DNA of 64,000 nucleotides, taken from assembly GCF_964355755.1 (NCBI RefSeq), contig NC_092671.1:9176001-9240000 (forward strand). Reading direction: 5' to 3'. The translations under genes and the position numbers were made by a program. Below, piece after piece: positions 2,791-30,845 of this stretch (the stretch's first letter is position 1; each line of letters starts with the position of its first letter). Below the pieces are notes generated by a model. That model searched no databases. It was not told where the DNA came from and worked only from the letters and a program-made list of their open reading frames with translations. Source of the DNA: Antedon mediterranea (taxonomy: Eukaryota > Animalia > Echinodermata).

Positions 2791-2940
2791 TTTTCATAAG
2801 GTGATTGAATAGACACCTATAATCATAAAAATGTAATAAAATACCAAATTGGTATTCCTGCCACCGGACTATCAATTATACATCCTGTGAACAGTTATAC
2901 CTTTCAAAACAGAATAATGAGTGAAACATGTACCGTATAC

Positions 2941-3845
2941 CTGTCCAAATCCATCGATTATTCTACTACTTATCAAAAGGCCAATTCCACATCTTGCAGC
3001 AAATGGCGACAACAGTGTTATCAGAGAAGATATTGCCACGCCAGATAATATAACAGGGAAGCCGCCGTATTTACCAACTAGCCATCCGCCAACCATAGGT
3101 GTAACAAAGTACCCGTAGTAAAATGCCCCTAAGATGTCTTGTTGCGTTTTCATGTTCCAGTCAAATGAGTTCTTCTGAAATATATAATCAAATACACCAC
3201 TTGCTGATTAGGTATAGTTTATATTTATATAAAAATAACGCCTAGGCCGATCATGTTCCAAAAAAAATTAAGCAAACAAATCGACATTATGTCAGGACCG
3301 TGACTCGTTTAATAACTGACAACTAACTTTTTGTACGTGTGGCGTACCATAGATAGGATGACAATACTCCAGTTTGTGCGATTGATGTAGTTTAAAGTAT
3401 TTGCAGCACAGCACATAGCCACAATGACATATCGAATATAAAATCGAGGCGGCCGTAAATCTGAAAAAAACGATAACACACAAAATTTCAGTCTACCGTA
3501 CTTGCTAAGTTAGTACACATAAGGGTAAGGCCTAATGTCGATTTGAAATGTAGTTACAGTCACATAGGCATGTAGGCCACATATTTACTCAGTTCCTGTG
3601 TTATTGTTCCAGATAGGTTTTTAAAAATAAGTCTGGAATCACGTTAAACTCGATTAGGCCTATTAGCTACCAGGAAAGAATTATTACTTACCTGACCAAT
3701 CAATTAAAATATTGGCCTATTACGGCGGGTTAGTGATTACACTCAGTTAGCATAATTGTCACGGGTATGTATCATTACATAAAGAATAACATGGCTTACC
3801 TTTTTGTAAAATTGGTTCTGCTTCCTCTTTGTGTTTTTGTGTCAT
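2941..3845 (-). CDS. SLC17-family (sialin-like) MFS anion transporter, 5' coding exons only; gene runs off the left edge
   Basis: Exons 3845-3800, 3460-3348 and 3174-2941 with AG/GT ends and matching phases give MTQKHKEEAEPILQKDLRPPRFYIRYVIVAMCCAANTLNYINRTNWSIVILSM-KNSFDWNMKTQQDILGAFYYGYFVTPMVGGWLVGKYG...SRIIDGFGQ. SLC17 motifs are present: RxNxSxxIxxM, FDW...ILGxFYYGY, GGxLxxKYG. No downstream exon was recognised in 1-2940. Confidence 0.85.
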
Positions 3846-5290
3846 ATTATTACCGGTAGCTTCCCAAATTTGTATGGTTTTATTTGAGTCTCCCTGTAGT
3901 CAAGCAACCAGCCATATATGAAGAATGAGACTTTCGAAGTCTTATATACGGTTGTACATATGGTAATACCATATACTAATTAGACTGGAATAACTCACTG
4001 CGAGACATTGCGATGATTCGTATTGTTAAAAATGCCGAATACTTTAATTCGAATCGCTTTTTTTCTAAACTAATGCATGCCCTGATTCTGACTTTTATGG
4101 ATATCCTAGCTATGAATTCTGAATAATAATCACAAGGCCGAGGGGTTAAGCCTTTGATTGTTTCATTTTGAAAAGGTGAGTTTATGTGAAACTGGTCTGA
4201 GAGGCCAATAGTTTAATACCACTATTAATACCACTTTCTATTTTGTAGAATTGTCGCACAACCCAATTTGACAGCTAATACGAAAGATAATTTTTTATGA
4301 TAGTTGCAATGCATAAATAACTCTGTAATAATAGACCAACTAACTAAAGAATTTAATACATTTTTTTTGTATAAAGTTAATTGAAATATGGTAAAATAAA
4401 TAAATATACTATCTATCGCATTGACGATGATGAACATTTCTCGCTGCCACCACCAATATATATTATTATGCCTATACCAGCACTTTCAAAATGCAACCTG
4501 GCCGCCTTATACAGATCTAGATACAAAGTAACAGACCTGTTATTAGAAACAAATTAACGTCATTTTTATATTATATAAGTGTGGATAGGAGTCATTGATT
4601 TCAGAATGGAGCTATAATTTATAGCTCCATGTTGTAAGCTCCATAATTCGTTGGTTTACTTCTTTATGGAGCTATAACATTAACAATTAGAGAGTCCACA
4701 TCCCTGTTGCTGTTGAGGATTCCTCATCTAGACAAGATTGGACAGTTTTTTCCAAGCAAACTCCAAGTTTATCACCAATTTGATTTGACACTCCATGGTC
4801 CATGTGGCATTCTTTGTTATTATCGTTTTCGTGGCTACCAAGGTTGTTCCCAGTGTGTAGGCTATAGCGAGTTTGTAGCCTATAAATTTACGTGCTTTTC
4901 TTTATTCCACCCGTAGTTATGTATGTTATAATTAAGTATCATATTTTGCCCATAATGTCTGTTATCTATTCATAATAGTTTACTAGGAAATTATAATTCT
5001 TGTAATGAAATTGTCATCGGAGTTATTACCAACATAAGAAATAATATTCATTTTGATCACTGATATTCATTCCTTCTAATTTTTGTCATTGTTAATTGTA
5101 GATTATAGCCCCTATTTATACATATCATGTGTTGTTTATAAAACATTATGAACTAGAGGGTACTCCCGAGAGTACAAACCTCCGCCTACTGTAAAATTCC
5201 CCTACATAAAATGTTCCCGGAAAATATATATATATTTTTTACATTTTTTTTTATTATAGGCTAACTGCACACTACAAAGTTGTGGATGAG

Positions 5291-5895: not shown

Positions 5896-6129
5896 CAAGG
5901 AACAACTTCAACTCCAGTTAATAATGGCTCTCCAATCACTCCTTCTCATAAACACAGCAAATGGAGATGATAGAAACGCTTGCTTCTGCAACAGCATAAT
6001 TCAAGTTCAACGAAGAACTTACTCAATTAGAAACCATATTGTGCAAGCTATGACTAGTCATTCTCTCAAATGTGAATTGAAAGATATTTTTCTTGCTCAA
6101 GGAACTTCAGAAATAAAAAGATACTAAGA

Positions 6130-8730
6130 ACTTCTCAGTAACAGTCAGGAGCAGAACGTTTTATTTTTGGATAAGTTGAGTAATATATGCTGCACTAACT
6201 TTTCACATTTATTAATAACTGGTGATTTTAATTTCGGTAGTATTGATTGGATTAATCAAGCATCAGGATACTCTGATAGTCATGATGGAACAAATTTTAT
6301 GAATTGGGTTCAGGATCATTTTTATTTTCAACATGTAACACAAGCAACTAGATTTAGAGATGGACAGAATCCTAGTCTTTTAGACTTGGTTTTTACAAAT
6401 GAAGAGGACATGATCGATGACATTTGTTACAGTGCACCACTCGGTAAAAGCGATCACGCAGTATTAACATTTAGATTTGATTGTTACATTGACTCGCAAG
6501 ACAATATCTTGTTAAAACCAAATTATCATTACGGTGATTATGTTCAAATAAATAAAGAACTAAAAAAGATTGATTGGGAGGGGAAATTTGAAAATGGTGG
6601 AACAGAAGAGTGTTGGAATTTGTTTAGTGAAATTATTGCAGAAACTAGTGGACGGCACATTCCCAAGGGAAAAAAGGGGGACAACAGTAAAGTCAACGAG
6701 CCTCTTTGGATAAACAAGGGTATGAAGAAAATGATAAAGCTTAAAAGAAAAGCATGATTTAGGTATAACCATTGTCCAAGCAGATCTAATAAAGCAAAAT
6801 TTAAAGATGCTAGAAATAAAGTAACATCCATGAAAAGGAAGGCCATTTGGAACTTTGAAAAAATGATTGCTTCCCAAATAAAACAGAAACCCAAATCATT
6901 CCGGCGATATGTAAACTCCAAAACCAAGGTTAAAGCGAGACTACCATCCCTGAAAGATGAGAACAATGTGACACACAGTGATGATCAGTCCAAGACTGAG
7001 AAACTCTGCAGTTTTTGTAAGGGAAGATATTGATAACGTACCAGAGTTTCAAAGAAGAGTTTTTGATAGTTTGTTCTGAAGTTGAAATATCACCCCAAAT
7101 CGTTGAAAAATATTTAAAGAATTTAAATGTGACTAAGAGTCCAGGACCTGATGGTATTCACCATATGATTTTAAGAGAGTGCAGAGCTTATATTTCTGAG
7201 CCGCTAAGTAAATTTTTTTCTAATTCATTGAAAGAAGGTATTGTTCCTCGGAATTGGAAAGAAGCTCATATTGTACCTATTTTTTAAAAAGGAAGCAGGG
7301 TGGAAGTAAATAATTATCGGCCTGTTAGCTTGACTGCTGTTTGTTGTAAAGTTATGGAAAGCATCATTAGAGATTCTTTAATTAAGCATTTTGTCAACAA
7401 TAACTTATTATCAGAACATCAAGATGGCTTTAGGTCCGGTAGATCCACAACAACGCAACTATTAGAGATAGTAGAACATTGGTCTAAGCTTTTAGATGAT
7501 GGGCGTGATATTGATGTGGCATATTTGGACTTCCAAAAGGCCTTCGATTCTGTACCTCATATGAGACTGTTAAGAAAGGTTGAAGCTTATGGTATCTCCG
7601 GTAACGTCTATAATTGGATTAAAGACTTCATAAAAGGTAGAAGACAACGAGTAATGTTAAATGGGACTCTGTAGAAATGGTCGGATGTGATAAGTGGTGT
7701 TCCGCAAGGAAGTGTGCTTGGTCCGATTTTATTCTTACTCTTTATCAATGACTTGCCTGAAGTTGCATTATCAGAAGTTAAGATGTTCGCTGGTGATACT
7801 AAAGTTTATGATTATGGGGAATTCAAAGAAAAATTGCAGATCTCACTTGATAATATGTTTAATTGGTCGACCAGATGGCAACTACTTTTCAATGCCAACA
7901 AGTGCAAGATGTTGTATATGGGGAAAACAAATGAGAAGAATGAGTATTTTGTAAATGTACAAGATAAAGTTAAAATTGAAGAGACTGCTATAGAAAAGAA
8001 TCTCGGAGTATACTTTGATCATAAATTGAACTTTGATTATCATATAAATTGCTGTGTTGCTAAAGGCAAATAAAATAGTGGGTCTCATCAAAGGGACTTT
8101 TTGTTACAACGATAAGGATATGTTTCTTAGTCTATACAAATCTTTAGTCCGCCCTATCTTTAGTTTAACTGTTGTGTCTGGGCACCTCATCAAATTGGAC
8201 TGATTAAGAAAATCGAGTCGGTTCAACAAAGAGCTACCAAATCATTGTCAGAAATAAAACATTTGGCATATCCGTATAGATTGAAGTTTTTGGGTTTACC
8301 TACACTGGAGTACAGACGATTAAGAGCGGATATGATCCAAATCTTCAGAATTATAAATGGTCTTGACGTTATAGAATGCAGAAAGTTTTTTACATTTGTT
8401 GATTGTCATGGAACTAGAGGTCATGAATACAAGTTATATAAAAACAAGTTTAGGCTTAATTCCAGGCAGTTTTCCTTTAGTTGTAGAGTTGTGGACTCGT
8501 GGAATAGCTTACCATTTAATGTTGTAAAAGCTCCAAATTTAAATCTATTCAAGTCACTCCTCAATGATCATTGGAAGTCCCTTGACTGCAAGTTTACTTT
8601 TTCACATTTATAAACACTTTGGAACATTATGTGTACACCCGGAGCCCTAAGCACCTATATTTTGGTTATAAGAAGACAGGAAGGGTCATATAAGCTATAT
8701 TTAGCTTTCTAACCGACCCATAAACATCAA
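6130..8730 (+). mobile_element. CR1-group non-LTR retrotransposon (APE + RT ORF2), inactive
   Basis: APE motifs ITGDFN, LDLVFTN and GKSDH. RT motifs KSPGPDG, NYRPVSLT, YLDFQKAFDSVPH and SGVPQGSVLGP; the catalytic FADD is mutated to FAGD. CR1-type C-terminus LEYRRLRADMI...TRGH...VVDSWNSLP. Several stops and frameshifts. Confidence 0.92.
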
Positions 8731-10261
8731 ACAAGTATTACCTTTTCCCCTTCACAATCGAACTCGTCCGGGCTTTTGGGGCATAGATCATTGTGGCCAA
8801 ATTTGGTGAGAATCATATAAAAACTGTGACCTCCAGGCTGTTCACAGACACACGAACACACGCACACCCACACTGGGGTGAAAATATAACTTCCTTGGGC
8901 GGAGGTAATTGCCGGGACATTTTCCCTTCTTTTAAATTAGATTTCCATTTTGTACCTCTTGTGTGTAATCTAAATTAAATAATGATTGCATTTATTGTTT
9001 GTTGTCTAGAGTTGGAGAACACTCCCTTTGGTCATAGTTGTCTTGCTCTTGCTATGTGCTCTATTTTTACACCACTGAAAGGAATAATACATAATTAAAT
9101 GTCATCATAAATAGCATCCAATTACATTTTTAAATACCACCTACCATTTTGTATCAAACAAAGAAACACGGCAGAAGTAAATTTGGTGTTAACAAGGATA
9201 GTCCACAGTCGGTAGACTACCGATGGAGGTCATTTTCATCTCATTCAAACATGATCTTAAATAAAAAAAAAATTGTCTTTTCTGCCACAAATACCTAAAA
9301 GAAAATTAACAACAACTACTTTCATTCGTGAAATGATATTTAATTTAGAGATGCGAAGCATAAACAAATATTTATACTTATAGCATCCATGTGAATACAT
9401 TTTATTATTTCTATTTATATATATGGTAAATGAAATCAACTTTAAATTAAACTCCGTATTAATTTGTCAACGTACGTAGAAAGTTATATTCTTTGATACA
9501 AATCAATTAAATAAATGTATAGAGGGCAGCATTCAGAAAATTAACTGCACAAAAAACCCAACTGCACAAGTCTACCTTTTCTATTTTTTCGGTAATTTGC
9601 GGTCTTTTTTCTTGTAAATAGTCATTTTTTTTTGTATTTTCCGGTTTCTTCTGATATTTTTTTCCCCGGTATTTTCCGGTTTGTTTTTTTGCAACCCCAG
9701 GTCATCATCACCACATCATCATCACCTGAATGAGCCATCCAGCTCGTCGTCAATCGAATTGGTATTTATTTGTAGGTCTATATAGACGGATCCCATATAG
9801 ACTAGCCTAGGCCTATGCCTAGGCTAGGCCTAGGCCTAGGCCTAGAGGCTAGGATATGAAGGGAAATCCGATATGAATATGGAGAAAACATACTTGTTGT
9901 TAACCGACCAACAATAGAACTAGGCCTACTCATAAATTTCTCCTTGTGCCTTTCCAGTTTTGTTTGGATATTGTTGTCTACAGCTTTTACAGTAGTAAAA
10001 ATCTAATATTTTGATAAGATTAATTAAGAATCAAGATATAAGATAAGCTGATTTTAGGTCATTCATGGTTAGGTGGTCTAGGCTAGGGCCAGGTCTAACC
10101 TAATATCCAATTCTTATTTTAATTACCACATACAGTACTGTATATTACCAAAAAGGTGTAAAAAGCCTTTATTATTTATATCAGTAAATTTTATTTCGAT
10201 CGGATAATTTATATAATTTACTGGCCTACAGGTGTACTGAAATTAAGACTAAGAATAAGAG

Positions 10262-13200
10262 ATGGCAAGTGATTACAACAAGGAACCAATCAGAGCTAGT
10301 GACTTCACTATTAACCAGACTACACCATTCAATGCAGAACCCCCAGTAGCTATCTTAAGGGAGCACTTTGTAACAGCAAATGATAAATTCTACGTACGGA
10401 ACCATGCGCCAGTACCGTTGATAGATGAAGCATCATATAAGTAAGAGTTAGTTAGTTTTGCTTAGTTTTTTTTATGGCCTAGTTTGTGTACAAAACATTG
10501 TACAAACAAACACTCACAACTACAGTATCAATATAGTCTATATAGATTTTACTAGAAACAGTAGATTATTTTACATTACATTTTTCCATATAAATCTGCC
10601 TCATGCTGGCTATGGCCCTGCCTTATCTGAGAAGACTTGTTTTACTACCAGTACCATGGATTCAGTAAAATAAATAAAATACCACTTTTTGTCTTGTTAT
10701 TTTATAGATTATCAGTTGAAGGATTGATAGCTCGTCATTGCAAATTTTCAATATGGGAACTAAAGCACAGTTTTCCTCAACACACTGTTATGGCAACACT
10801 GATGGTAACTAAAAGTATTAAATGTACTATAAGTGCAATAAATAAAAACTCTCCTTGATCAATTTCAATAATATTTCATCCCAACATCTGATTGCACACT
10901 TGCTTGTGATTTTATCCATGGGAGAAACTACTTTTGCTATTCATTCATTTCCTTTATTTCGGATAATACATCCATATACAAATCATACAAAACAATAAGA
11001 GAACAAGCACGAATGTGCGATACTCCGGGTACAGCGAAAGAAGCTGTAATGACGTCATAAGACCGGATGTAACGTCACATACACATCAATAACCGGGCTA
11101 CCAAATACGGCTATATGGTACCATCTTCGAGACGTCATATGGCTGCATCCGGTTTGAAATTTAAAAATCCGGCTCTATAGATTTGAGGACATGTCCCTGT
11201 AGTATATTCATGCTCAATACTACAACTAATAAGGGAGGAGTAGTACTTTAAAAATCGCACTTTTTACTCAATAGTGTCCAGATGGAGGAGGAGAAAAGTC
11301 CTAGACTCGGGTACCCTAATTAAAAACAATTTCACCAGGTAATTAATGATAGCAACTTCGACAAAATAGTTAACTATTTAAAAAAATTAAACATTACAAC
11401 TATCATGGTTTTCTGCTCTTAAAAATTATGACCGGAGTTCCTCCAATATTCATAGAAAGTGGGAACCGTTATTCGTTACAAGCATCATGCTTGCGCTATT
11501 ATAAATATGTAATGTAACTTCAGTACGTAACCCGTTATTAAAGCAAACTCTAAATGAGTTCACAGTACCTTCACTGAATTTACTCCATTAATACATTAAC
11601 ATTTTTCTGTTTTACTGGGCTTTACTTTTAATGTATATAGCATTGTCATTTTTTCAGTAATTTGCCTTTGGATTTATATATATATATATATTTTTATATG
11701 TATTTTTTTTATAAATGTTGTATTTTTTATTGTTTATTATGTGCAAATTGGACCCCATTTGAAATGGGCTGTTTTTTTTCAGCCTAATGGGTGTTCCTGA
11801 TGCTCGTTATTTTGTCTTTATTTTTTCAAATTTTTAATGTTGAGCATCAAATAAATTCAATCAATTCAATCAATGCAATACATTTTAAAAAGCTTTATTC
11901 ACAGAAATTTCAAATTTGAAAAATGTTCTGCATAATGTATTAGCTCTGATACACAGAGCTCTTTAGTTTCCATAGTCGTACTGTTTCAATAAGGTGCTCT
12001 ATCCATCATAGTATTTTGCTATCCCAGGCTTTAAGAAGCTGGTATACAGGCATTAAACTGCAAAGGTAAAGCAGTGTACCTGTCTTAGATTTTAAACATT
12101 TGCTTGTTTAGCATTTGTGTCTATTTAACCCAACTTAAACCTACCACTTCTTCTACTTTTTAGTGTGCAGGCAACAGAAGAACAGAAATGTCTGATATCA
12201 AAGCTGTACGGGTGAGTTAGTACCTTCAACGCTTCAAAAACTTGACTGGTTCTGGCCTTATATGTCCATTTTGTAAAAAAAATCAGAATTCAGAATGTAA
12301 AACAATTTGCATTGTTCTTGGTATCTGGTACCAAGTTATCCTATTTTGATAGACTATAGGCTATTAAAACTTAAAACTTATTGTATTATCTACTTCACAG
12401 TTTGTGTGGAAGCGGGAATGTAGAATACTGTACTTAGGATAATAATTATTTGAAATTGTCACCTTTTAAATTTACATCTTCCTGGTTTTACTAAATTATC
12501 AACATCTTTTAGACCATTTGAAATAATCAATGCAATACATTGCTAAAGATCTCATATGGCTATATTTTCTATATATTTGTGTAGGGTGTTGGATGGGGAT
12601 GTGCAGCCATTAGTAATGCTGTATGGAAGGGGCCTAGACTGCGTGATGTGTTATTCATGGCTGGTATTGAGAAGGTAAGTATTCACATGCACACCATGTG
12701 ACCCACAATCATCCAATCAAATGACAGGAATTTATATAGGTGTTATATAATACTGAATACTGAAATTCTGTATTTGTCCATTAACATAATAAATAACAAT
12801 AGAAATTTAAATATTAGTACGATAAAAAACAAACAAGCAAAAATTCATATACAGAATACACACACATTATTGCACTGATAAAAAGTTGTTTAAAAAGGGC
12901 ATCATCTATCCCATTGCTTTTGCATTATTTCTTCTACTAACTTAACTCAACAACGATGATGTGTTGTAATTATATATTCACTGTATGACTAGAACATATT
13001 TGAAAGAGAATTTTTATCATGATGTTTTTTTTAATTCAGCTTGAGAGTTTGTGGGATCAGCTACATGTGGATTTTGAAGGTATTGACATATGCAAAGATA
13101 AACGAGGCTATGGGTCATCGATCCCTCTTCACAAAGCATTGTAAGTACAAAGGTTTATTTCAGGAAAAATGTACATGGTCTTACCACAAGAATGTTGTTT

Positions 13201-16200
13201 TGGAGTGGCTTTTAATTTGTCAAGAAATCTTTCTATGATTAACAAAAAAGGGTATCCAGAAAAATGTCTAAATTCATGAACTAAATCAGACCAAACATAG
13301 TAATTAATTTAATCAAGTGGCCATATACAGTCTTAAGATATAGTATCTATAATATTTTCTAGTCTTTATGATATATATAGTTTTTCTATGGGTTTTTTGT
13401 GGCAAGCTCAATATGTACTGTAGTATCATATACTGGGCATAATTATGTGTTTGGTTAAAAAGGCATCAAATTTGATTTACCATTTTGGACCTTGGTAGGT
13501 TTTTTAGGGTTTTAAACCTTGAGGGAGTTTACCATACTGTATGACTTTTTGTTCATTTTATATTTACATTTTTATTAAACAGAGAAAAACGAGGAGATGT
13601 GATTCTTGCTGTGGAGGTTAGTTAGCTATTTTGTTTTATTATAGCATTAATCTCTACTTCAAACAATGTTACTGTTTTTTAATTTTGTGCAATTATTTGT
13701 AAAAAAAATAGCATATACTCACACTGATGTTACCGTAACAAGATTTGTGAGAAAACCTGCCACAAGACGACACAGCTGGATTGAAAGAATAAGCATGCCT
13801 ACCAGCCTAAAAGGATGTTATGAATCTACACAAAATATAAGGTTTATTGTCTAATAAAGGCAGATTAGAATAAAATAAACTTAACATGAAGTTTGAATAA
13901 TTTACAGTATGGATACCATTTGGCCAGCTTAAAAAATCAATTAAATTCAAAGTGATATTTATTTAGTTAGAAAAACAGTTACCAAAATGTTGGTAACTAA
14001 TACAATGATAAAGTTGAAAAAGGCATGTTCAAAAATAGCAATATGCTTGTGGAAGACATGCCTATAGACAAAGATGATATTTAAAAAAACAGACAGATAA
14101 AAAATATAAAAAACCCCAAAAATAGCATATACATAGGTATACAGTCGTCTTCTGGTAAACATATTGAAGTTTACAATAGATAACTACTACAGTATTTGGT
14201 CTAAGTGAATTCTCTGGTACATAGATGAAATTTGTGTGTATACATTTGTTAAATATTGATCAATTTTTAAATTTCAATTTAATTTATTTCCACAATATAA
14301 TAACATACATACAGGATAAAAAATACAATTAAGTAATCATGTGGCGGGGGGGGGGGGGGGGGGAAAGGAGGAGTGTTATATAAGTCAGAAAGACTTTAAA
14401 TTTGACCCACCCCAAGATATAATATTAAATACGAATACGAAAAAAAATATATATAAATTGACTAATAATAAATAAAAGAAAACAAAGCTTCTATTCAAAC
14501 CATATTATCCGATCTTAACTGGCCTTATAAAATATATATATTTAACAACCTTTTATCTGTAAAATATTTAATACTATTATTTAAAAATAATGTTTTCATT
14601 CAATTATTTCATTCCAAAAAGATATATTTATACAATACTGTCAATTCCACTCTTTTATTTATTTTTGTTTTGTTTAAATGATAAATACATTAGCCAAAGT
14701 GCTACTTTAAAATAAGTACCAGACTGCAGACAAGTATTGCATTTACTGGTACAGAGTAAAATAAACAAGCTTTAGTAAAAAAGTATTTTCACAATATTTG
14801 TATTCCATTTCCATAGATATTTTTATTCCATTTCCCTAGATATTTGTTTATAATTTATATCTTATTGGAAGATGATTATTAATATAATATAACTAATTTT
14901 TTTTGTCCTTTATGACCCTGATCTAAATTATGTTTTTATAGATGAATGGGTCCGAGTTACCTCGAGATCATGGCTACCCGGTACGAGTGATTGTTCCTGG
15001 GTATATTGGAGCAAGGTAATAATACTGTATATTACTTCCAGACATAAATTTCTGGTTTTTCTAACAAAATTAGTAAATTGTGTGATTGCCAGTCATAACA
15101 GTACTGTAGTTATAACCAAAGATAAAAAAAACCATAAACAATGTATAAAGGATATTTAAAAATCTACATGATGGGGTTCACCAAAAAAACGAAGTATATT
15201 GGACAAGTGGCTCAAGAAAATTTAAGAAAAAATGTAAATTTTTATTTAATTTATAAACAATGAATTGGAGCCTATAAAACATATTTTTCGGTTTGTTTTT
15301 GTTTTGTATTTGAAGATTAAAATTTACTTGTTTGATTTCTGTCAGGAGTGTAAAGTGGCTGAAGACTATAAGAATCCAGATGCATGAGTCTACCAACTAT
15401 TACCAGAAGAAAGATTACAAGCTTTTCCTGCCTGAGGTACTTTACACAAATAATTGTCATGAGTTGAAAGATTGTTGAATAGCCCAGTTATCTTTCAACT
15501 CATGAAAATATTCTCTCATTCCACAAACACTTTTTACAATTTTTATGGCCGTGCCAGCTTGCCCCACCCCAACTCCTCCCCTATTTTGAAATAGCATGGC
15601 ATCCATCACTGCTCCATTTTTAAAGATATATTGTCCCCGAACAACATGAAAAATGAAGACTAATTAAATCAGATTTTGAATAAGCCATTTTGTAGTTTTA
15701 ACAAAGTTAATCACTTCCGAAGAAAAAAAACCCTGAAAAAACAATGTTTTCATTTATAAAATGACAAAATAAATGGTTAAATTCAACCAAAAACCTATTG
15801 GCTGGCAGCGAATTTGACTATTTTTTGCTTTAAATTATAGTTTTTTTCAGGTAAATAAATTTGTTTTGATCGAATTTTTGGTCAAAGTGGATAACTATTA
15901 TCCGACATTAAAATGGCATATTCAACAAACAAATGTTTAAGAATTATTTTTTCAGGGGACAATACATCTTTAAAATATGTTGTCTGTGTTGCATTATGGT
16001 TTGCGTAGGTTGACTGGGATACAGTGGATGAATTGTGGGATAAGTCACCAGCCATACAAGAACTGAATGTGCAAGCAGCAATCACGCAACCTACAGATAA
16101 TGAGAGGATCCCAAAGGGTTCAAGTTACACAGTCAAGGGCTACGCATTGTCTGGCGGTGGAAGAAAGTATGTAATAACCTTTGTAATTTAACTTATAGAG

Positions 16201-18461
16201 GTATTATTCAGATAGAGAGCTAACTAGATGACAGAGAATTGATGTGTACAGGGCAGGGACTCCTCAAAATGGTAGCCAAACTGTTAACAAATATTATTGG
16301 TGTATATTAACGTTAAAAAAAATTACGTTTTTAGAAAATTAATTATAGGGTAATTATATATATATATATATATATTTTAGATGTTTTAAAATATTTTTAT
16401 CATTGTTTTATATGTTGTTTTTAATACTGTTTTATTCATGAAACTTTTACTTGTTTTATGTGATTTTGATCAATTAAATGATCTGAATGAATGTTGTTAA
16501 TTGTCATGGATTTCCACATACAAAGATTGTTATAATAATATGGATGATTGAAGCCTGACTTCAAACTGTTGTATCTGATTTGCTTATTGGTGCAGCCATA
16601 TTTAATCCTCTTTTCATGGTGCTGATTAAGTTGTTACTCTCTAGATGATCAATTGAACAAATATGATTTTAACTGTGAGGGATAATATTAATATTCTTCA
16701 CGTACAAACCTTTACAGGACTACAAAACGTATGTTGTTCAGTGGCGTAATGGCTATGATCGCTCACTGGATAAACCCAAGGGCCCCTGGTGGCGCCTGAA
16801 CAGTGCCCAGAGGAAAAAAACAGGCATTCAAATATGCCAAAAATGCTAAAAACCTTGGAACTAGGAGGGCCACTTAGGTTTCCTAAACCAGGGGCCTCAG
16901 GCCTCTGCATTACACCACTGATGTTGTTCTTCATTTGTTGAAATATTCAGGTTTTCCCCCTCATTTTTGTTTTGCCTATTTATTCCTAAATACGTGTGGT
17001 TAATATAAAACTTAACCATGAAATCCATTGAGTTAATACAGTACAATATTAAAATAGAAATTATTCTTTACAGCTTATAACAAGCAACCAACCATGAATT
17101 GTCTACAGTATTGTTTGTATATTAGCATCCTGTTGATATTGAATGTTCGGTGTTTTCCCTATATTTCTGTTTATTTGTTGACATTTCTAAACTTTTATGT
17201 ATATATTGGTATTATTCCAAAAAGTAATGCCAGAAATGAGTATTTAATTAACCACTTGCACTACATGGCCTTTATGCTAAGAATTTTCATTTGGTTAAAG
17301 ATGTATTGTGTCCAAGAAATACAAATAAATAAAATTCAATTTTGAATAGGCCATTTTTCAGGTGGATAATATATCTTTAACAAATGTTTATCAAAAATGT
17401 TAATTGCTAATTTAATTACTAATTTATTGTAGGATAACACGTGTTGATATTTCCTTTGATGGCGGTAAGAGCTGGAAAGTTGCCAACTTGTTTACAGCCT
17501 CCCAGAATCTGCCTAAAATGGATACAAAATGGAGCTGGGATTTCTGGGAATGTAGTGTCAAGTTTATGCCATCACCCTGTCAGATTATCTGCCGGGCTTG
17601 TAAGTAAAACCATTTTATTGTTAATGTTATATAATAGTTCTTTTTAGCTAGAGATTTCAAATATTGTCCCTAACCAACGAATATTAAACCTTCATTTTTT
17701 AACGCCTCACTGTTCTAGAGTAAGATTTAATTCAATTAACCTGCTGCTTCTATCTTTAATGTGAAAGGCTATTCTAAAAAAAAGAAACCCCAAATTTTGC
17801 CTGTATGGTAGAGCAGTTACCTACACACACTGTGTCACCTGCCAGCCACATTGCACAACAATAGCAAAATTCTTACAAAAAGCATGGTGTGAAATAGTAA
17901 ACTGTTGAAAAATCTTGAATTGAAAGTTGAAGGCTGGGGCATTTACCTTAGCAGCCCACAGCACCCTGAGGCGACGTCAGAACAACAGAAACGAACCCAT
18001 AGTTTATTTTGTTGACAGTCAATATGGATACAATACAACAATACAAGAACATATTACATTCAGTGGCGTAACACAGTAGCCCAAGGCCCTTGGTTACGAA
18101 CCTTAAGTGGCCCTCCAACGCTGGAGGCCGACCTTGAACGTTTTTAGCCTTTTTCGACATATGCATGCTTTTTCCTCTGGGCACTGCTTATGGGCCCCCA
18201 TAAGCTCCAGGCCCCTGGGTTTAGCCAGTGAGCGCTCATAGCCGTTACGCACTGATTATGTTGGTCTGAACAGGCTCTTAGGTTTGTAAAAATTGATCTT
18301 ATTCAACCTTCAAATATATTTACAATTGGATATTTTTCTATCCAGGGGATGAGGGGTCAAACACTATGCCAGAAAATATTCATCAGATATGGAACTTGCG
18401 TGGTGTCATGAATAATTCATGGGTACGAGTCAATGTGGTCTCTGATGAAGCAAAGCTATAA
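10262..18461 (+). CDS. Sulfite oxidase, Moco + dimerisation domains only (heme-less), C-terminal PTS1 AKL, 384 aa
   Basis: Exons 10262-10440, 10708-10804, 12164-12211, 12585-12674, 13040-13140, 13583-13616, 14942-15015, 15346-15436, 16009-16166, 17433-17599 and 18346-18461 total 1155 nt, all GT-AG and in phase. Motifs: PFNAEPP, FYVRNH, CAGNRR, MNGxxLPRDHGYPVR, GARSVKWL, DYK, GYALSGGG, WNLRG. Confidence 0.95.
11001..11320 (-). mobile_element. Probable HINE-like repeat, family C
   Basis: AACAAG end plus hairpin GCAC-GAAT-GTGC; CGGGTAC motif near both ends; GC-richer than the surrounding intron. Confidence 0.35.
12689..12750 (+). repeat. Fragment of the palindromic element at 43330-43610
   Basis: Nearly identical to 43547-43610 (CCATGTGACCCACAATC...GGTGTTATATAATA). 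Confidence 0.7.
16739..16920 (+). mobile_element. hAT MITE
   Basis: TIR CAGTGGCGTAATG/CATTACACCACTG; perfect 8-bp TSD ATGTTGTT. Confidence 0.85.
18061..18254 (-). mobile_element. hAT MITE of the same family, opposite orientation
   Basis: TIR CAGTGGCGTAAC/GTTACGCACTG; TSD ATTACATT/ATTATGTT. Its right part is the reverse complement of the left part of 16739-16920. Confidence 0.8.
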
Positions 18462-19771: not shown

Positions 19772-20869
19772 TCAACAGGATGAGGTAGTTACTCCACTGC
19801 TTTGAGATGGCGAAGATGAATTTGGATGAAAGTCTCGTCTTGCTAGGCCATGTATTTTACGCCAAATCTGATGCAAGCCGTTTCGAAAATCTCTCATCTT
19901 AACACCATAGATTATTGGGTTAATACACATATTTGATGTGTACATGAGAACAGTTATTTCGTGTCCAACGATAGTACTGAATTCGAAACATTGGCAGATG
20001 ATATAAACCAGATACAGCGTAAAGTTTGGTGAGCTAGTGCAAATAAACCCAATTACCACGAAAAGCATTGTGAAAATGAGGTTTCTGTGCATGGAGATAT
20101 GAGATGTGGAATTGCGTTTTTCCAAATTCTGCTTCGACTTTTTCTGCTGGTGTGAATTTTGTTCCTTCAGTTCCGGGTTCTGTGTTTGTTGTGAGCGGTT
20201 TTGTTGTTGCTGAAGACTCTTCCGAAATATGTCGTGTTTGCGCACCGTCCATATGACCACACCATAGCAGTAAATCATTATAGATGACGGCACGAAAAAT
20301 AGTAACAAGAAAATACAAATACCGGAGACGTAGCCGACAGTACGATTTGGGTAATTATAGCGACACTCGCCTGGTGAATCTTCGTTTACTTCTGCGAGTA
20401 TTCCAAGATGGAAAAGGATCAAAGTGCCCATAATGTAAGGTATCAAGTAAAACATTATGTAAAACAATATAGATTTATTCTCCTCGCTTCTGAATCTATA
20501 CCATATTGGATGCACAACTGCTAAGTACCGTTCAATTGTGATCACTACTAGGTTATATGTGGATGTTGATGCTATGATCCAAAACAGTGTTCGAGCTTTG
20601 CAGAATATTGTTCCGTATTCACCATCTGGTGCGTCTTGGTTGTAAAAGAACAGGAACGTACAGCAACCAAATAAATCTAAAAACGACTGCTGAACGATTA
20701 AGCCATGTAATAAAGACTTCTTATACATCTTTATATAGACGAATACAACAGTGACCAGAATGTTAAGAACAATTCCAATGCATACGACGGTAAAACGTAA
20801 CGCTACCAGCCATACTGGGTCGTGGTGACGGTCTACTGGCATGGTGAAGTTGTCAGATTCGTTTGACAT
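19772..20869 (-). CDS. Orphan class A (rhodopsin-like) GPCR, intronless CDS, 365 aa
   Basis: Seven hydrophobic segments, ERY after TM3, NPIIY in TM7, N-terminal glycosylation sequons, Gln-rich ICL3. Confidence 0.92.
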   Translation of the reverse strand: MSNESDNFTMPVDRHHDPVWLVALRFTVVCIGIVLNILVTVVFVYIKMYKKSLLHGLIVQQSFLDLFGCCTFLFFYNQDAPDGEYGTIFCKARTLFWIIASTSTYNLVVITIERYLAVVHPIWYRFRSEENKSILFYIMFYLIPYIMGTLILFHLGILAEVNEDSPGECRYNYPNRTVGYVSGICIFLLLFFVPSSIMIYCYGVVIWTVRKHDIFRKSLQQQQNRSQQTQNPELKEQNSHQQKKSKQNLEKRNSTSHISMHRNLIFTMLFVVIGFICTSSPNFTLYLVYIICQCFEFSTIVGHEITVLMYTSNMCINPIIYGVKMRDFRNGLHQIWRKIHGLARRDFHPNSSSPSQSSGVTTSSC

Positions 20870-22437
20870 GATTGAATCTGTGAATTATAAATTACATCTT
20901 GTTATTAGATGGGTGAAGAAATATTTATTATAAAGCTGGGGAGAGAATGAATCTTTCGACGTATACAAGACGGTTGCGACAGTCGTGACGCAAGAAACAA
21001 ATTAACAATTTAAAGTGGAAGCATTTGGTTAGCTAAAGTTAAAGCAGACTTCCAAGTGTTCCAAGTTAACCGATATTTTGCGTGATCTCCCGCTTTTTTT
21101 TAACGTTGGGACCTGTGTTACAGGTTAGTCCAACCATAGATTAAATAATTATTCAATCCATGGTCAAACTATCTGCTTCGTTACCTCAATATGATCTGAA
21201 ATGTTACTGTTACCAAGGAAGAGGAAGATTAATCTTCTCTGCTGTTACCAATTTTTATAGAAATACAAAAGCTTGTAAAAAAAATCAATAATTACCCATT
21301 TTAGCTCAAGTTTCGTCTCAAATGTACGTGCATCTAACTCCAGTCACAATCATACACTGCTCAGTATAGAAGGGGGTAATAAATTATATTTGATTTTATG
21401 AATGCGTTTGTACAAAGAATTAAAAAGTTTCCGTTAAGTTTTGTTGTTTTTGATTGGACTGTCATGCATGTCTCGTCTAAAGTCACCGTTATTTTAAACT
21501 AGCCAGAACAAGAAGCACGGAATGTATTATGTTTGATTGTATGAATGCTTGATATAGTTTTCATCGAAAGTTATTTTATAATTGTCTTAGATTAGATTGG
21601 AATGTCACTGTTGCGGTTATGAGGCAAGGACAAACCATTATTGTATTTAATTATGAAGAAATCTTGGCACAACAGTTTGTTTTGCATTGGAATGTCATAC
21701 AAACGGTTAACAAAGACAAAGCTCAGTGAATAGATATAATAGACAGACATATTTAAAGTGCACCCTATTGCAAAAGGGGATTTCCCTTTATTTTTCCGGT
21801 TCTTTTAAATCATATACTATAATAATAACTTTACATAATACAATTAATAAAAGCACTATGGTGATTAAATCTGGAAATTTGTCATAAACTCAAATTAATT
21901 ATGAAGTTAATCCAGGGTTGCAGCGGCCTGTGACACAGTCACGAGAGGCAAGATGTGGTTGAATATTACTTGGGCCTAATTCACACATCTAGTATTTAAA
22001 TAGATGATCAGCATTGGATGTACAGTTTACTTAATAAATAAATATTAAAGTTCAATGTTATTTCTGTAAACTAAAATTCAGAACCGTGGCTGAAACTCAT
22101 GTTTTAAAAACAAAGATAGCAATACAATTGCATTTTAAAAATAACAATTTGACAATATTATTTCATGTAAATCTGCATCGTCTTTCAACGTTAAATAGTT
22201 GGCCCTATACTAAAATATTACATATAGCATTTTAATAATTATTACAGTATGTCGCATTGCTAAGCACTCTATATCCGGTATTATGACCAGTTACCGTATA
22301 GCCCTACTAGCATACGCGAGTCGAGTACCACCCAACACTCCTTTCCCCTTCCCCCAAATTTTAAAACAGGCCTACGCTGCGAAATATAGAAAATTAGTTC
22401 AGTAGCCTACAGCATCTGCATCTGCCGCGTATATTAA

Positions 22438-22616
22438 AGCGTGGTTCCCACTATCGACGCAACACAAGGACGTAACGCAACGCAAGTGAATTAACCAATC
22501 ACAAGCGATGGCTTATTCGCTTATGATTGCTAACTGTCTATAACTTCTCTTGTCATTGGTTAAAACGCTTGCGTTGCGTTTACGTCCTTGCGTTACGTTC
22601 TAGTGGGAACCAAGCT
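22438..22616. mobile_element. PIF/Harbinger-type MITE
   Basis: TIR AGC(G/T)TGGTTCCCACTA with TWA flanks. A one-end fragment lies at about 35248-35277. Confidence 0.75.
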
Positions 22617-22677
22617 TTACAGGTTACACCGTCTTCGTTTCTAGGACCAATCCATCCGCTACGGTACCATGTAAAAG

Positions 22678-23676
22678 TTAAACAGTAGAACTGATATTTT
22701 GTGACGTATCGACAACACTCGATTCACCATTTGCGTCTCGCAGTTTACGCCAAATTTCACGTACACCATTTTTGAAATCTTCCATCTTTGCTCCGTAGAT
22801 TATTGGATTAACACACATATTAAGAGTGCCTATTAGTATTGTTATCCCGTTTTTAACCATAGCGCTGAAATCAAAGCATTGACAAATAGCGTATGTTAGG
22901 TACAAAATGAAATTTGGTGCTGTAGTGATAATGAAGGCAACAACAACAATTAGCATCGTAAATACAAGATTTCTTTTCACGGATACGTATTTTTTCCTGC
23001 TAAGACCAGGAGCATGTTGTCGATTCTCTCGAGATCTTTGACGCAGGCCTATTTGAAACACGATTCGGCAATAGCAGAATATCATAAAACACACCGGGAA
23101 GAAGAACACAAACACAAAAAGAAGTATTCCGGAAAGAAGACCGAATTCTTTAGTATACATAACACATTCACTCTTCTGTTGTTTATTCACCTCAGAAAGT
23201 ACGACAAGATGGAAGGAGATTAAAACCCCGATAATGTAAGGAATCGTGTAAAAGACATTGGATCTTCCGCCAATGTTTCTGTTTCTGTACGTAATAGGAT
23301 GTACCACTGCAATATATCGCTCAAATGTAATCATCACAAGATTGTAGATGGACGCAATTACTCCAAACCAATAAAGCGCTCGACCTTTGCAGAAGCCACG
23401 TCCAGCTCTTGTTCCATCTGGTGCGTCCTGGTTGTAAAAGATCAGGAACATACAGCAAACAAATAGATCTAAAAACGACTGCTGAAATATTAAGCCATGT
23501 AGTAAAGACTTCTTGTACATCTTTATGTACAGGAAAACTACAATGACGCCAGTATTAAGCACGATTCCAATGCATACAAGTACAAAACGTAAAATTATCA
23601 GCCATCTTTCGTCATGCAGTTCTTCCGTTGCAGTGCCAGGAGTGCTGCTACTACCAGTATCATTTTCGTCCATCAT
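22678..23676 (-). CDS. Orphan class A GPCR, paralogue 2
   Basis: 7TM, ERY, NPIIY. The start is probably MMDENDT at 23676, just after a TTTTAG acceptor; the longer ORF-track start lies in the intron. Confidence 0.92.
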   Translation of the reverse strand: MMDENDTGSSSTPGTATEELHDERWLIILRFVLVCIGIVLNTGVIVVFLYIKMYKKSLLHGLIFQQSFLDLFVCCMFLIFYNQDAPDGTRAGRGFCKGRALYWFGVIASIYNLVMITFERYIAVVHPITYRNRNIGGRSNVFYTIPYIIGVLISFHLVVLSEVNKQQKSECVMYTKEFGLLSGILLFVFVFFFPVCFMIFCYCRIVFQIGLRQRSRENRQHAPGLSRKKYVSVKRNLVFTMLIVVVAFIITTAPNFILYLTYAICQCFDFSAMVKNGITILIGTLNMCVNPIIYGAKMEDFKNGVREIWRKLRDANGESSVVDTSQNISSTV

Positions 23677-24683
23677 TAAATAGTCTAAAACAACCAATAG
23701 AAATACTGTAATTTGTAATATACACATTATGACAATAGCACAAAAGACACATAAACTAAATCTTATTTAAACACATCCTTCTGCTAATTTATATTTACAC
23801 TACTTTAATATCTCATCATATTACTTACTTATGTCAATTATATTCAGTTGATCCACATTTTGTTCTAAAGCCACCGATTCTCGGTACTGTATAATTCTCC
23901 AGTAGGCCTATCATATAGGAATATTTGGTAATACAACATCACATGTTTTTTACATGTATCTCCTATATAGACCATAACCAACCCGTCAAAATACTGTAGC
24001 ATGAGGAGATACAGCACTGATAATCGTGTACTAAAGCCCCCTAACACACAACATCAACCAATATTGAACCCTAAAGCAAAGAGAGACCAACAATGTAACG
24101 GTCAAGGCAAAGTAAAACTTATATCACTTTTAAATAAACTCAAGTCTAGGCCTACTCACCCATTTTTCCAACTTAATTTTGTGAAACACCGAGAGTGTAT
24201 TGTTAACAGAAAATACAAGGAACTATTCACAGAAAGTAATTTTAAGACAAGTGTTTTGAAACTATTTACGGTTTCCCCTAATTCCCCGGATTCAGCCAAT
24301 TGACTAGCTTAATTAGAGAAGTTAGACAACTCACAAGTAACGAAGATACACACAATGAAATTAACAGTTTTGTTTCTATTGAAGTTTCAATGAATATCTG
24401 GTTCTAGTGTTCTGCGCATTCGCAATTGGTGCCAACATCCAAGATAACATTAGCTATCTTCTTCAGCCGATTCTCTTGTACGATATCATGTCTAGAGACA
24501 ATAAACTGCGAGGCTGTTTGATTTCGGGCGACGGTTAACAGGCCCATACACGAATGGCATTGTCCAGATAATAACCTAAACCTCTAAATAAATAACTAAG
24601 AAGTTCGTATTTGAAAAATTAATTTAACGTATAATAATAGTGGAATAAAGGTTGTAGTAAGGTATATATAGACATAATTGTAA

Positions 24684-24874
24684 AGGCCAATTTACACAGA
24701 CAAGCGGTAACAGTAATATAAATATAAATATAGAATCTATGTTATTCCTTAATTACCATTTACACACAACGCGGAGCGGACGGGCGGTTTCCGGCAGGAT
24801 AGATACAGATTCTACGTGGGACAAGCTACGCGGTTGTCCGCTTACCGTTACCGCTCGTCTGTGTAAATTGGCCT
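24684..24874. mobile_element. PIF/Harbinger-type MITE
   Basis: TIR AGGCCAATTTACACAGAC/GTCTGTGTAAATTGGCCT; TAA TSD on both sides. Confidence 0.8.
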
Positions 24875-24954
24875 TAATCGTGTGTCGTCTTTAGTTAGAT
24901 AAACAGCATTTTTGTCAAATTTCATTCTTGTATCAGTTTATCTAACAGTGTTTT

Positions 24955-25128
24955 ATATATAAACCCAAAGGCAAATTACTGAAAAAAATGACAATGCTGT
25001 GGGTATCAGTGGCTGGATCTCAATGGAGATACAAAAAAAAAGCGAAAAGCTAAATAAAAACGATAAAGTAAAACAGCCAGAAAAGTTAGCAGAGCTTTCG
25101 GGCAACACTAGCCCTTCATCAGTGCAAG
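24955..25128 (-). mobile_element. Penelope-like terminal-repeat fragment
   Basis: Nearly identical to 58750-58901, (TA)n flank, contains a hammerhead core. Confidence 0.6.
25086..25128 (-). ncRNA. Minimal type I hammerhead ribozyme motif
   Basis: Minus strand reads GCA-CTGATGA-AGGGC(TAGTGTT)GCCC-GAAA-GC-TC-TGC: catalytic core, stem II, palindromic minimal stem III (AGCT), CUC cleavage triplet, stem I GCA/TGC. Confidence 0.65.
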
Positions 25129-25199
25129 CTCTTTATCAGTGTTTTATATATATAAATATCTGTTATATATATAAAACTGTCAAACGAAGGTAACATGAG

Positions 25200-25813
25200 T
25201 TTTTAGTCGCGTGGACGCGACTCTATAGTTCACTATGTCGGTCGGTCGATCTGTCGGTCTGTCGGTCTGTCTGTCGGTCCGGTATCACTATGCGTTTTAT
25301 CGCTTTCTGACCTTATCTTGATATCAGTTTAATCTAGCTAAGTCAATTTTTCACAGTATATTCCTTATGGCAAGGAATCGATGTGGTTATGTTTTTACGG
25401 TGCGCAATAAAAAATTACGCGGTCTACGCACGATTTAACGAAATCACGTTTGTAATCACCATGAATCACAATTAAATAAAATTTGGTACTCATAAATTTC
25501 AGGGCATAAATCATCATATGGCAATACAATTACGTGCGTAGCGCATGTAACGCATGCGTACGCGCGCTTAAAATTTTAAAAATTTCGATGAAATAAGAGT
25601 ACGTTTCAGGCAATTTTAAGCGTTTACAAAATTGCCATGAGTGCGCAGATTTTTGCGCGCTACGCACGTGTAAATTAAAAAAATATAAATGTTTTTAAAC
25701 ATTTCAACATTTTTAAACATGTTCAGTAATTTCGGTCAGTTGGTAGGTTGGTCGGTCGGTCGGTCGGTAAACACTAATGAGCACGCGACTGCAGCCATCT
25801 ATATGGCCTTGTT
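25200..25813 (+). mobile_element. HINE/DINE-1-like family A, longest copy
   Basis: TTTTT start, subTIR/hairpin AGTCGCGTGGACGCGACT, (GTCG/GTCT)n, 3' subTIR CACGCGACT, stem-loop GCCAT-CTAT-ATGGC, CTTGTT end. Confidence 0.8.
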
Positions 25814-26169
25814 AAATCTGTTTTCAATTTGCTCCTTCATTTCTTTTTTCGAACTTACAAAAGTTAAAATACAATAATTACAAAACTGAGATACTACACG
25901 ATATTATAAACATTTTGTTTCTGTTACAGTTTCAATAATAATTCTGGTTTGTGTTCCGCCTAGGCCTATAAAGCTAGATGACCATATAAGGTATTGACAA
26001 TATTATCAAACGATGTACGACATTTGTTGTTATTTATTTCATTCATTTACCAGGATATAGATATTCAGTCAGCCCATTTCACGGTATCTTTTGTGCAATA
26101 GTTATATACTAGCTTACTGATGGACATCAAACTTGAACTAAAACAAAAGTCTGGCTAAATTGTTTATAA

Positions 26170-26394
26170 TTGTCGTATTCGATTTAGACTTTCACCGTTG
26201 AGTACAGTTTTTCCGTTGAGTACTTCTTTAACGGAGTATTTTGAGCGTTGAGATTGTTCTTAATGAAAAAGCTTTCGTTGTCAACGTTTTCTATTCGAAT
26301 GACTTTCTGTTGAGCACAAATTTACAATTCGAATACCAAAAGTACTCAACGAATCTTTACGTTGAAAACGAAAGTTCCCAATCGAATACGACAA
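26170..26394. mobile_element. Unclassified MITE
   Basis: Inverted ends TTGTCGTATTCGATT/AATCGAATACGACAA; internal CGTTGAG subrepeats. Confidence 0.5.
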
Positions 26395-26452
26395 ATGTTC
26401 AAATCAAGCTTGTTTCTATAAAGCTTCGAGTATTAATGTCAATATTGCGAAC

Positions 26453-26493
<41 letters not shown>

Positions 26494-26769
26494 ATCATAT
26501 TTCTATTTTCTTTTATTACAGCAAAACATATCGGTTATTATGTATTCTCTATGATTTAATGAATGAAAAATTATATATTATATATATAAAAGAAAATAGA
26601 AAATATGATTTTACAAGAGATTCACTTTTAGGCCAAATTGATAGTTTTATAGTTCATGCCCAATATACAGCAAAAGAAAATCGCCCTCTTATTCCTTTTA
26701 TTACAAATTGCCAGCAGTTATAGAATAAGGTAAGCGTTATTTCAAAAATTGAAAACTCATGACAACATT

Positions 26770-27874
26770 TTAGTGCCTTTTCAACAGCTCACATTCTCGA
26801 ATTCTACGCCAAATTTCACGTACGCCGTTTTTTAAATCTTCCATCTTTGCCCCGTAGATTATTGGATTAACAGACATATTACTAGTTCTAAGCAGCACGG
26901 TTATTTCGTGCGCAATAATAGTGCTATAATCAAAACACTGACAAATAGCGTATGTTATTGTACGGTATTTTATAAGTTTGGCCTTTTTGGCACCCACGAT
27001 TATAAACATGTATCATTATATCATTATATTTTATTTTATATTAATTTAAACTACTGGATTAACTACAGTTTTGATTTCAATGTTTATGTTTCTATTCGAT
27101 CAATTATTATTATAAATGTTTAACCTGTAATTTAAGGGCAGAGAGTGAACCCACATTTCGTAGGGAAGATCAATTCTCTTGTAATTTTTATTGCTTCCCT
27201 ACTTTGCGTCATTATCAAATAAAATGGCATTTGACACTAACTTTGTTTCGTATTTTTGTGAGAGCCAGTTGTCACAAATAGTGCTATAATCAAAACACTG
27301 ACAAATAGCGTATGTTAAGTACAGAATGAAATTTGGTGCTGTAGTGATAATGAAGGCAACAACAACAATAAACATCGTAAACATAAGATTTTTGTTGACG
27401 GTGACATATGGCTGTTTACCAAAACCACGAGCAGACTGCTGATTATCTGATTGTCTACGTAACTTCAACAGAATTCGACAGTAACAACAGATCATAAAAC
27501 CAGCTGGTAGGAAGAAAACAAAATGAAATATCAATATTCCGGTGGGAAGAACGGCTGCTTTGATATACATATATTCACCCTTCAGGTTTTCATTGGCATC
27601 GGCTATTATGACAACAGAAAAGCAGAGTAAGAACTGTAAAAGAACAAGAACATACAGCAACCAAATAGATCTACTACCGACTGCTGAAATATTAAACCAT
27701 GTAGTAAAGACTTCTTGTACATCTTTATGTACAGGAAAACCAAAGTAACAATGATTTAAACACAATTCCAATGCCGATGACTCCAAAACGTAACGTTATC
27801 AGCCATTTGTCATCATGCAGTTCTTTTGTTGCAGTTCCAGAGGTGGTAGCAGTATAATTTTTGTCCATCATCAT
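26770..27874 (-). pseudogene. GPCR pseudogene of the cluster
   Basis: N-terminus homologous to paralogue 2, then a frameshift, deletion of the TM3-TM4 region, and a 319-bp insert (26958-27276) splitting TM6 from TM7. Confidence 0.85.
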
Positions 27875-30098: not shown

Positions 30099-30680
30099 GA
30101 TGAAAAATTGTATACGTACTTATGCTATAATTAATAGTGTCTTGTGATGAAGCGTACTTTATCCTCCTCCTCGATGATTGATGATTAGTGTTTAATTATT
30201 CATTTTCAATTAAACTTAACTACTGTTGTTGTCAGTAGCATAAAATATTAAAACACGTGTTTTTAGCATTATAAACAAGTAGGCAATAATAGTGTCTATG
30301 AATAATTTAATGTGTAACAGTGTACTGTTGTTTACATTATGTATTTAATTAATGACATCGCAATCAAGGTATGTGGTTGCATTTGGTATCGAAAGTACTG
30401 TTGTCGATGACGTGGTAAACCTCAGCTTCTCTGCCTTGCACCACCGGAACCAGACCAAATGCAGTGACATTATGTGTAGATTGTTCTGAATGGTTGCTTT
30501 GGCAAGATAGTATATATGAAAATAGAATCTTCTCTTTTACACTTCTTTTGTAGATTAATAGATTATCATAAATTAAACTTGTTCTCTTCGTGGGTACTGT
30601 TGTTTAACATTTTCTCCTATATTCATTGTAGGCCTATTTTCTTAACCATATTTTGAACAGCTCGGAAATAATGCTGGCTT

Positions 30681-30844
30681 TCAAGACCTAGGGCTACACG
30701 AAAGAAGGCATGGCAATAGTAGGCGTATATGAAGTATCCACAGCTGTATCTCGCATTCTACGCCAAATTTCACGTACACCGTTTTTGAAATCTTCCATCT
30801 TTGCTCCGTAGATTATTGGATTAACACACATATTACAAGTGCTA
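30681..30844 (-). repeat. Tandem partial duplicate of the 3' end (TM7 and C-tail) of the adjacent GPCR
   Basis: Near copy of 30846-31008, directly abutting it. Confidence 0.85.
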
Positions 30845-30845
30845 T

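Follow-up and report, generated by a model that had tools for sequence, protein, structure and literature searches.

A heme-less sulfite oxidase gene with a peroxisomal-type C-terminus in the crinoid Antedon mediterranea, and its probable place as an old eukaryotic paralogue

A 64,000-nucleotide stretch of the genome of the echinoderm Antedon mediterranea (NCBI RefSeq assembly GCF_964355755.1, contig NC_092671.1, positions 9,176,001 to 9,240,000 of the forward strand; hereafter the window) carries a spliced gene for a two-domain molybdenum enzyme of the sulfite oxidase (SO) family, located on the plus strand between window positions 10262 and 18461. The encoded protein lacks a heme domain and ends in Ala-Lys-Leu (AKL). 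We consider it probable that this enzyme is peroxisomal, that it oxidizes sulfite to sulfate with O2, and that it represents an old eukaryotic paralogue kept by some animals. A review by Mendel and Schwarz describes animal SO as mitochondrial and heme-bearing, with plant SO as the peroxisomal exception (PMC10574614).

Splicing of the 11 exons yields 1155 nucleotides that encode 384 amino acids plus a TAA stop codon, with zero internal stops, and all ten introns are bounded by GT and AG. The spliced product is letter-identical to the RefSeq protein 'sulfite oxidase-like [Antedon mediterranea]' (P0001), which is also the sole match among five candidates when exon 1 alone serves as the query. An earlier, sequence-only reading of this DNA had proposed the same exon count, protein length and motifs, and the splicing and the RefSeq identity bear this out. 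Specifically, FYVRNH is found at residue 43, CAGNRR at 93, GVGW at 109, DYK at 231, WNLRG at 362 and AKL at 382-384. Pfam identifies Oxidored_molyb and Mo-co_dimer domains (E 9e-58 and 4.5e-39) and no Cyt-b5. By alignment (no targeting predictor was run) there is no mitochondrial-type N-terminal extension, and residue 3 pairs with residue 8 of Arabidopsis SO.

Judged from aligned residues, the substrate pocket is of the sulfite type rather than the nitrate type, and the Mo-ligating Cys is intact. All eight of the residues compared (R46, H48, C93, R98, W112, Y232, R365 and V367) match chicken and plant SO; we take the chicken counterparts to be R138, H140, C185, R190, W204, Y322, R450 and V452, in that order. 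At three specificity positions the Antedon protein carries Y, R and V, versus N, M and M in nitrate reductases. An AlphaFold model (predicted local distance difference test score 80.6) aligns with chicken 1sox at Z 46.2, with a root-mean-square deviation of 2.1 over 371 residues, and with plant 1ogp at Z 44.4. Both its domains and its fold place the protein in the eukaryotic SO family. The RefSeq model from Anneissia (P0002) is misaligned at exon 3 in the active-site comparison; in that model an unrelated insert replaces CAGNRR, which likely reflects a missed 48-nucleotide exon 3.

Coding exon 1 (10262..10440; this and all other exons are on the plus strand) encodes Met1 through Tyr59, including FNAEPP and FYVRNH with Arg46 and His48. 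Its joint to exon 2 (10708..10804), from 10440 to 10708, is present in a contig from sequencing run X1. Exon 3 (12164..12211) begins at Cys93 with CAGNRR, and the loose end of the same contig equals this exon. GVGW with Trp112, together with NAVW, is encoded by exon 4 (12585..12674), RDHGYP and PGYIGA by exon 7 (14942..15015), and RSVKWL and Tyr232 by exon 8 (15346..15436). The dimerization domain begins in exon 9 (16009..16166). Exons 5 (13040..13140), 6 (13583..13616) and 10 (17433..17599) are placed by the splice model. Exon 11 with the stop codon (18346..18461) encodes WNLRGV, Arg365 and Val367, and the fit of a second X1 contig starts exactly at its acceptor, at 18346. The terminal AKL codons, which specify a canonical type 1 peroxisomal targeting signal (PTS1) tripeptide, occupy 18450..18458.

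Run X1 is putatively RNA, a status that its splice joint supports, and the transcript evidence comprises one contig from one study. This 1052-nucleotide contig spans 10056-10440, skips the GT..AG intron 1 exactly and runs on into exon 3. In it, the first coding exon has an untranslated 5′ stretch at 10058..10261 (plus strand), following an AG at 10056-10057. The sequence-only reading had assumed an acceptor at 10231 and had argued from four in-frame stops between that site and the ATG that no upstream domain could be joined in frame. The stops are present at 10238, 10244, 10250 and 10256 (together covering 10238-10258), and the conclusion holds. The contig, however, reads unspliced from 10056 through 10231, so the latter site did not serve as an acceptor in that transcript. 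Two small indels in the 5′ leader distinguish the contig from the window, and all four stops lie 3′ of both, so nothing upstream is in frame in that transcript. These indels and two adjacent differences at 10289-10290 (codon 10) indicate that X1 derives from another allele or individual. Splice-joint entries from a further run, X2, are repeat noise. The claim that no cytochrome b5 exon lies upstream likewise agrees with the searches made: six b5 domains compared by tblastn with the 64-kb window give a best E of 0.33, and the motif HPGG is absent from all six frames of the window.

A homologue search with the Antedon protein gave 3803 matches, of which the best 120 were listed. The top 27 of these 120 are 376-416 amino acids long and without PF00173. 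Named orthologues without this domain (377-410 amino acids, 51-76% identical) come from Anneissia (76%), Apostichopus, Lytechinus, Diadema (67%), Trichoplax (60%), Priapulus (58%), Paramacrobiotus and Hypsibius, and the top 27 also contain Colponema and proteins from ENA, Logan and JGI. Cluster look-ups add heme-less proteins from Strongylocentrotus, Holothuria, Ramazzottius, Gordionus, Tieghemostelium, Mesostigma and Coemansia. Identity to the starfish b5-bearing SO (SUOX) is 44%. Among the ENA, Logan and JGI proteins (P0009-P0025), two groups with SKL, AKL or ARL tails adjoin the animal heme-less clade (90/88), and some of their genes lie on contigs 0.6-2 Mb long, which means that the heme-less enzyme occurs in additional lineages. 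A search of the ESM Atlas gave matches at the family level only, and a metagenome scan recovered bacterial and plant-like homologues, none above 46% identity. Soil and water bacteria (L003-L080) encode heme-less SO homologues of 350-390 amino acids that are 40-46% identical to the Antedon protein and closer to it than SorA or SorT; one of them, L066, has an HPGG-bearing extension.

Trees were built from 374 columns of the catalytic region of 78 hand-picked sequences, with nitrate reductases as the outgroup; most fish and insect sequences and many further database entries were omitted. In the careful tree, computed with posterior mean site frequencies (PMSF), one clade (100/99) unites the 30 b5-bearing proteins, whose sources are animals (starfish and hemichordates among them), Volvox and other eukaryotes. 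The Antedon protein falls in an echinoderm heme-less clade (100/99) that includes P0274 (Spur_XP_791058), and the echinoderms join Trichoplax and Priapulus (93/90) outside the b5 clade. Plants form a clade of their own, weakly (84/77) beside the b5 clade. Approximately unbiased (AU) tests, run on the LG+G4 quick tree, reject the union of the echinoderm heme-less proteins with starfish b5 proteins (p 0.0004) and with all animal b5 proteins (p 0.00026). These rejections exclude a loss of heme within animal SUOX and uphold the outside origin that the sequence-only reading had proposed. The Antedon protein lies outside the b5-SUOX clade and is related to its members as a paralogue rather than an orthologue. 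The most fitting view of the heme-less forms is that of an old grade that either gave rise to the b5 fusion or stood beside it when it arose.

The same reading had called the enzyme plant-type, a term that is apt for its architecture only and not as shown descent. The Antedon protein scores 393 bits with chicken SO versus 346 with Arabidopsis SO. At ten columns diagnostic for plant versus animal b5 proteins it has the plant residue in two, the animal-b5 residue in four and neither in four, and a plant-animal heme-less clade appears in none of the IQ-TREE trees. A FastTree grouping of heme-less animals, protists and plants (0.92) was dropped because IQ-TREE did not reproduce it. The motifs VRGVGW, NAVW and IGARSVKWL are nearer to Arabidopsis SO than to chicken SO in alignments, as the sequence-only reading had held, with chicken rather than human SO as the animal reference.

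By the broad PTS1 pattern quoted in PMC8919083, 31 of 36 heme-less proteins versus 0 of 195 b5-bearing proteins have PTS1-like ends, and by a strict pattern the counts are 21 of 36 versus 0 of 195; near-copies inflate both counts, and the proteins are not independent. The 36 comprise P0001-P0027 and nine chosen relatives, and the 195 comprise all proteins with HPGG or HPAG from the homologue search with the Antedon protein and from the Ptychodera search described below, plus a few added. AKL matches the consensus, as had been stated, and the tail persists in different phyla although the preceding residues vary. Heme-less relatives with PTS1-like tails include those of Nuclearia, Tieghemostelium, Colponema, Coemansia and streptophytes, and the ends of the bacterial homologues inspected are without such tails. 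Most heme-less relatives keep a PTS1-like end, as orthologues were expected to, but five of the 36 are without the broad pattern: Priapulus (SKY), P0012 and three tardigrade proteins. PEX13 and PEX14 are reported to be missing from tardigrades, as is PEX5 from Hypsibius (PMC6652013), and loss of peroxisomal genes is likewise described in PMC5034306. Thus, the tail is missing where the import machinery is missing, in what is a single lineage.

By analogy, the Antedon enzyme, with its AKL tail and intact pocket, most likely works like plant SO. The latter is described as a peroxisomal enzyme, imported via a PTS1, that donates its electrons to O2, not to cytochrome c, and thereby yields superoxide and H2O2; heme-deleted mouse or human SO also passes electrons to O2 (PMC10574614). 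A dimer loaded with molybdenum cofactor (Moco) would form and would be imported into the peroxisome by PEX5 through AKL. The metal would then turn over between Mo(VI) and Mo(IV), O2 would re-oxidize it to give superoxide or H2O2, and catalase would presumably clear the H2O2 produced.

Several observations, in addition to the inflation of the tail counts, weigh against this assignment and the history attached to it. Among named animals only two crinoids have a canonical tail; the others end in SKV, AKF, AKI, SRF, SKI or SKY, and Gordionus (P0143, outside the 36 counted) ends in ISP. These non-canonical tails may confer weak targeting, and human ACOT1 is cytosolic despite a C-terminus identical to that of the SKV-ending ACOT2, according to PMC8919083. 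In the PMSF tree, whose bootstrap is not fully settled, the base of the heme-less grade is not resolved, tardigrades stand apart from the other animals and protists are unplaced. The AU test does not reject either a union of the echinoderm proteins with those of plants (p 0.33) or one with those of bacteria (p 0.46). Finally, the 5′-most 44 nucleotides of the X1 contig, before 10056, are absent from the window, and 30 of these letters align to the window no better than shuffled letters do (best 24 versus 22-28). This end may come from an exon far upstream, from a structural allele or from a spliced leader, or it may be a contig artefact.

The variation among tails gives some room to an enzyme that acts in the cytosol or with a separate carrier such as free cytochrome b5, its tail being weak or vestigial. 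Tardigrades retain a tail-less form, which indicates that the enzyme can be useful outside peroxisomes. We nevertheless regard a cytosolic or carrier-linked enzyme as unlikely, given that AKL is canonical, that the tail is conserved while its flanking residues are not, and that none of the 195 b5-bearing proteins ends this way. The two AU results that spare plants and bacteria, the patchy distribution among animals and the close heme-less homologues of soil bacteria (43-47% identity) are compatible with the same enzyme, at the same location, having come to early animals from plants, protists or bacteria through one or more old horizontal transfers. Against such a transfer, which we consider quite improbable, a placozoan, a priapulid and three echinoderm classes form one group, and Nuclearia and a dictyostelid join the animal heme-less group weakly in quick trees (81-82), as vertical descent would predict. 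In addition, plants and bacteria each occupy their own clade with support of 100, the inspected bacterial proteins lack PTS1-like ends, and the Antedon gene has ten introns. Least credible, and largely refuted, is an ordinary mitochondrial SUOX whose b5 domain was lost within echinoderms or whose b5 exons were missed upstream. The higher pairwise score to chicken SO, the unmapped 5′ end of the X1 contig and the latitude that a single contig leaves for splicing to the AG at 10260-10261 speak for it. The AU rejections, the transcript stops before the ATG, the lack of b5 similarity within the window and the start of orthologues at about the same residue speak the other way. Ancient retention, one of two histories offered by the sequence-only reading, is the simplest.

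If an old paralogue was retained, then does it serve beside the mitochondrial enzyme or in its place? A second route for sulfite oxidation had been proposed, but the available data favor retention of one form or the other. A search with the Ptychodera b5-SUOX scored 7992 candidates and gave 2583 matches; among the best 120 of these, the only echinoderms named are Patiria and Asterias. Acanthaster and A. rubens are cluster members of these starfish matches, and none of the entries without a species name groups with them. Starfish and hemichordates do not occur as the heme-less form among the best 120 of the 3803 matches to the Antedon protein. In the SUOX alignment of supplement 3 of PMC6400420, a proteome-wide search of which places 1-27 and 55-108 of 112 were examined in detail, Strongylocentrotus, Trichoplax and Dictyostelium each appear once without b5, and the b5 forms include Saccoglossus once and Nematostella four times. 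The presence of only heme-less forms for Strongylocentrotus and Trichoplax in this alignment, together with b5 matches from starfish alone among echinoderms, suggests replacement and makes a second route doubtful. The molybdoproteome table of PMC6147048 holds no match for Strongylocentrotus or Trichoplax. A further Strongylocentrotus identifier, XP_785186, appears in the mixed candidate tree of PMC6400420 and may count against replacement.

In sea urchins and Trichoplax the heme-less form may therefore have taken over from the mitochondrial enzyme, and for Antedon itself we put replacement at about even odds. The heme-less and b5-fused enzymes would be old eukaryotic paralogues that an animal ancestor possessed together, with later lineages mostly keeping one. 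The b5 form would have been retained by vertebrates, arthropods, molluscs, cnidarians, hemichordates and starfish, and the heme-less form by crinoids, sea urchins, sea cucumbers, Trichoplax, Priapulus and tardigrades. A broader proposition, whose chances appear evenly poised, is that crinoids, sea urchins, sea cucumbers, Trichoplax, priapulids and tardigrades lost mitochondrial heme SUOX, such that a peroxisomal sulfite oxidase that consumes O2 and produces H2O2 ends their cysteine and sulfide catabolism. Starfish and hemichordates would have kept the opposite paralogue, and the split between animals and plants would reflect differential loss of two ancient paralogues.

Upstream of the gene, at 5900-8600 on the plus strand, lies a broken long interspersed nuclear element (LINE) with endonuclease (PF14529) and reverse-transcriptase-like parts, and the minus strand carries exons of a divergent transporter gene at 2872-3207 and about 3790-3890, which resembles SLC17/sialin. 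The minus strand also holds, at 19772-31934, a tandem array of at least five single-open-reading-frame rhodopsin-type G protein-coupled receptor (GPCR) genes plus fragments (7tm_1 E about 1e-33 for the two tested), with partial repeats near 30700-31000, and, at 62004-63305, a divergent beta-tubulin-like open reading frame of 433 amino acids without introns over its length. Contamination is ruled out, as the sequence-only reading had held, by the ten introns, the chromosome-scale RefSeq contig, the orthologues in other echinoderms and the neighboring 7tm_1 GPCR, tubulin and LINE sequences.

Like Arabidopsis At-SOX (1ogp), the Antedon protein comprises only Moco and dimerization domains, starts at an equivalent residue, bears a PTS1, has the same active-site residues and shares the VRGVGW and NAVW motifs. 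A profile of the heme-less group, which includes two streptophyte algae, ranks 1ogp first (507 versus 497 bits). Identity to 1ogp in the structural alignment is only 43%, however, and the trees and diagnostic columns set the protein apart from plants. Its catalytic core is 44-48% identical to those of b5-SUOX proteins (chicken 1sox; starfish XP_038072396), with a Z of 46 and the same Cys, Arg, Trp and Tyr pocket, but unlike them it has no presequence and no cytochrome b5 domain, ends in a PTS1 and lies outside their clade.

The division of eukaryotic SUOX into classes with and without Cyt-b5 was published in 2019 (PMC6400420). In its supplement alignment, Spur_XP_791058 (P0274) and Tadh_XP_002110304 (P0007) stand in the b5-less class with Dictyostelium, Nuclearia, Capsaspora, fungi and plants, and the Antedon protein belongs to this class by architecture and by orthology to listed members. 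The accessible parts of that study treat the class as the source of nitrate reductase only and do not remark on its animal members, the PTS1 or either-or retention. A literature search, thin on subscription journals and covering 12 of the 31 supplementary files of PMC6400420, found no description of an animal heme-less peroxisomal SO. The statement that no such animal enzyme had been described thus stands for the literature searched, with the qualification that sea urchin and Trichoplax members were already placed in the b5-less class. What we have, then, is a known class in an unexpected set of animals, to which the analysis adds a formal test that rejects convergent heme loss, tardigrades as a control for the tail and, among echinoderms, a pattern of keeping one form or the other.

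An enzyme of plant design that occurs naturally in animals would break the accepted split between animal and plant SO. It would offer a test of what makes a Mo center react with O2, a question relevant to the idea of treating SO deficiency with heme-deleted SO. Should the b5 form truly be gone, sea urchins and similar model animals would uncouple sulfite disposal from respiration. Starfish can be compared with sea urchins as a closely related natural pair.

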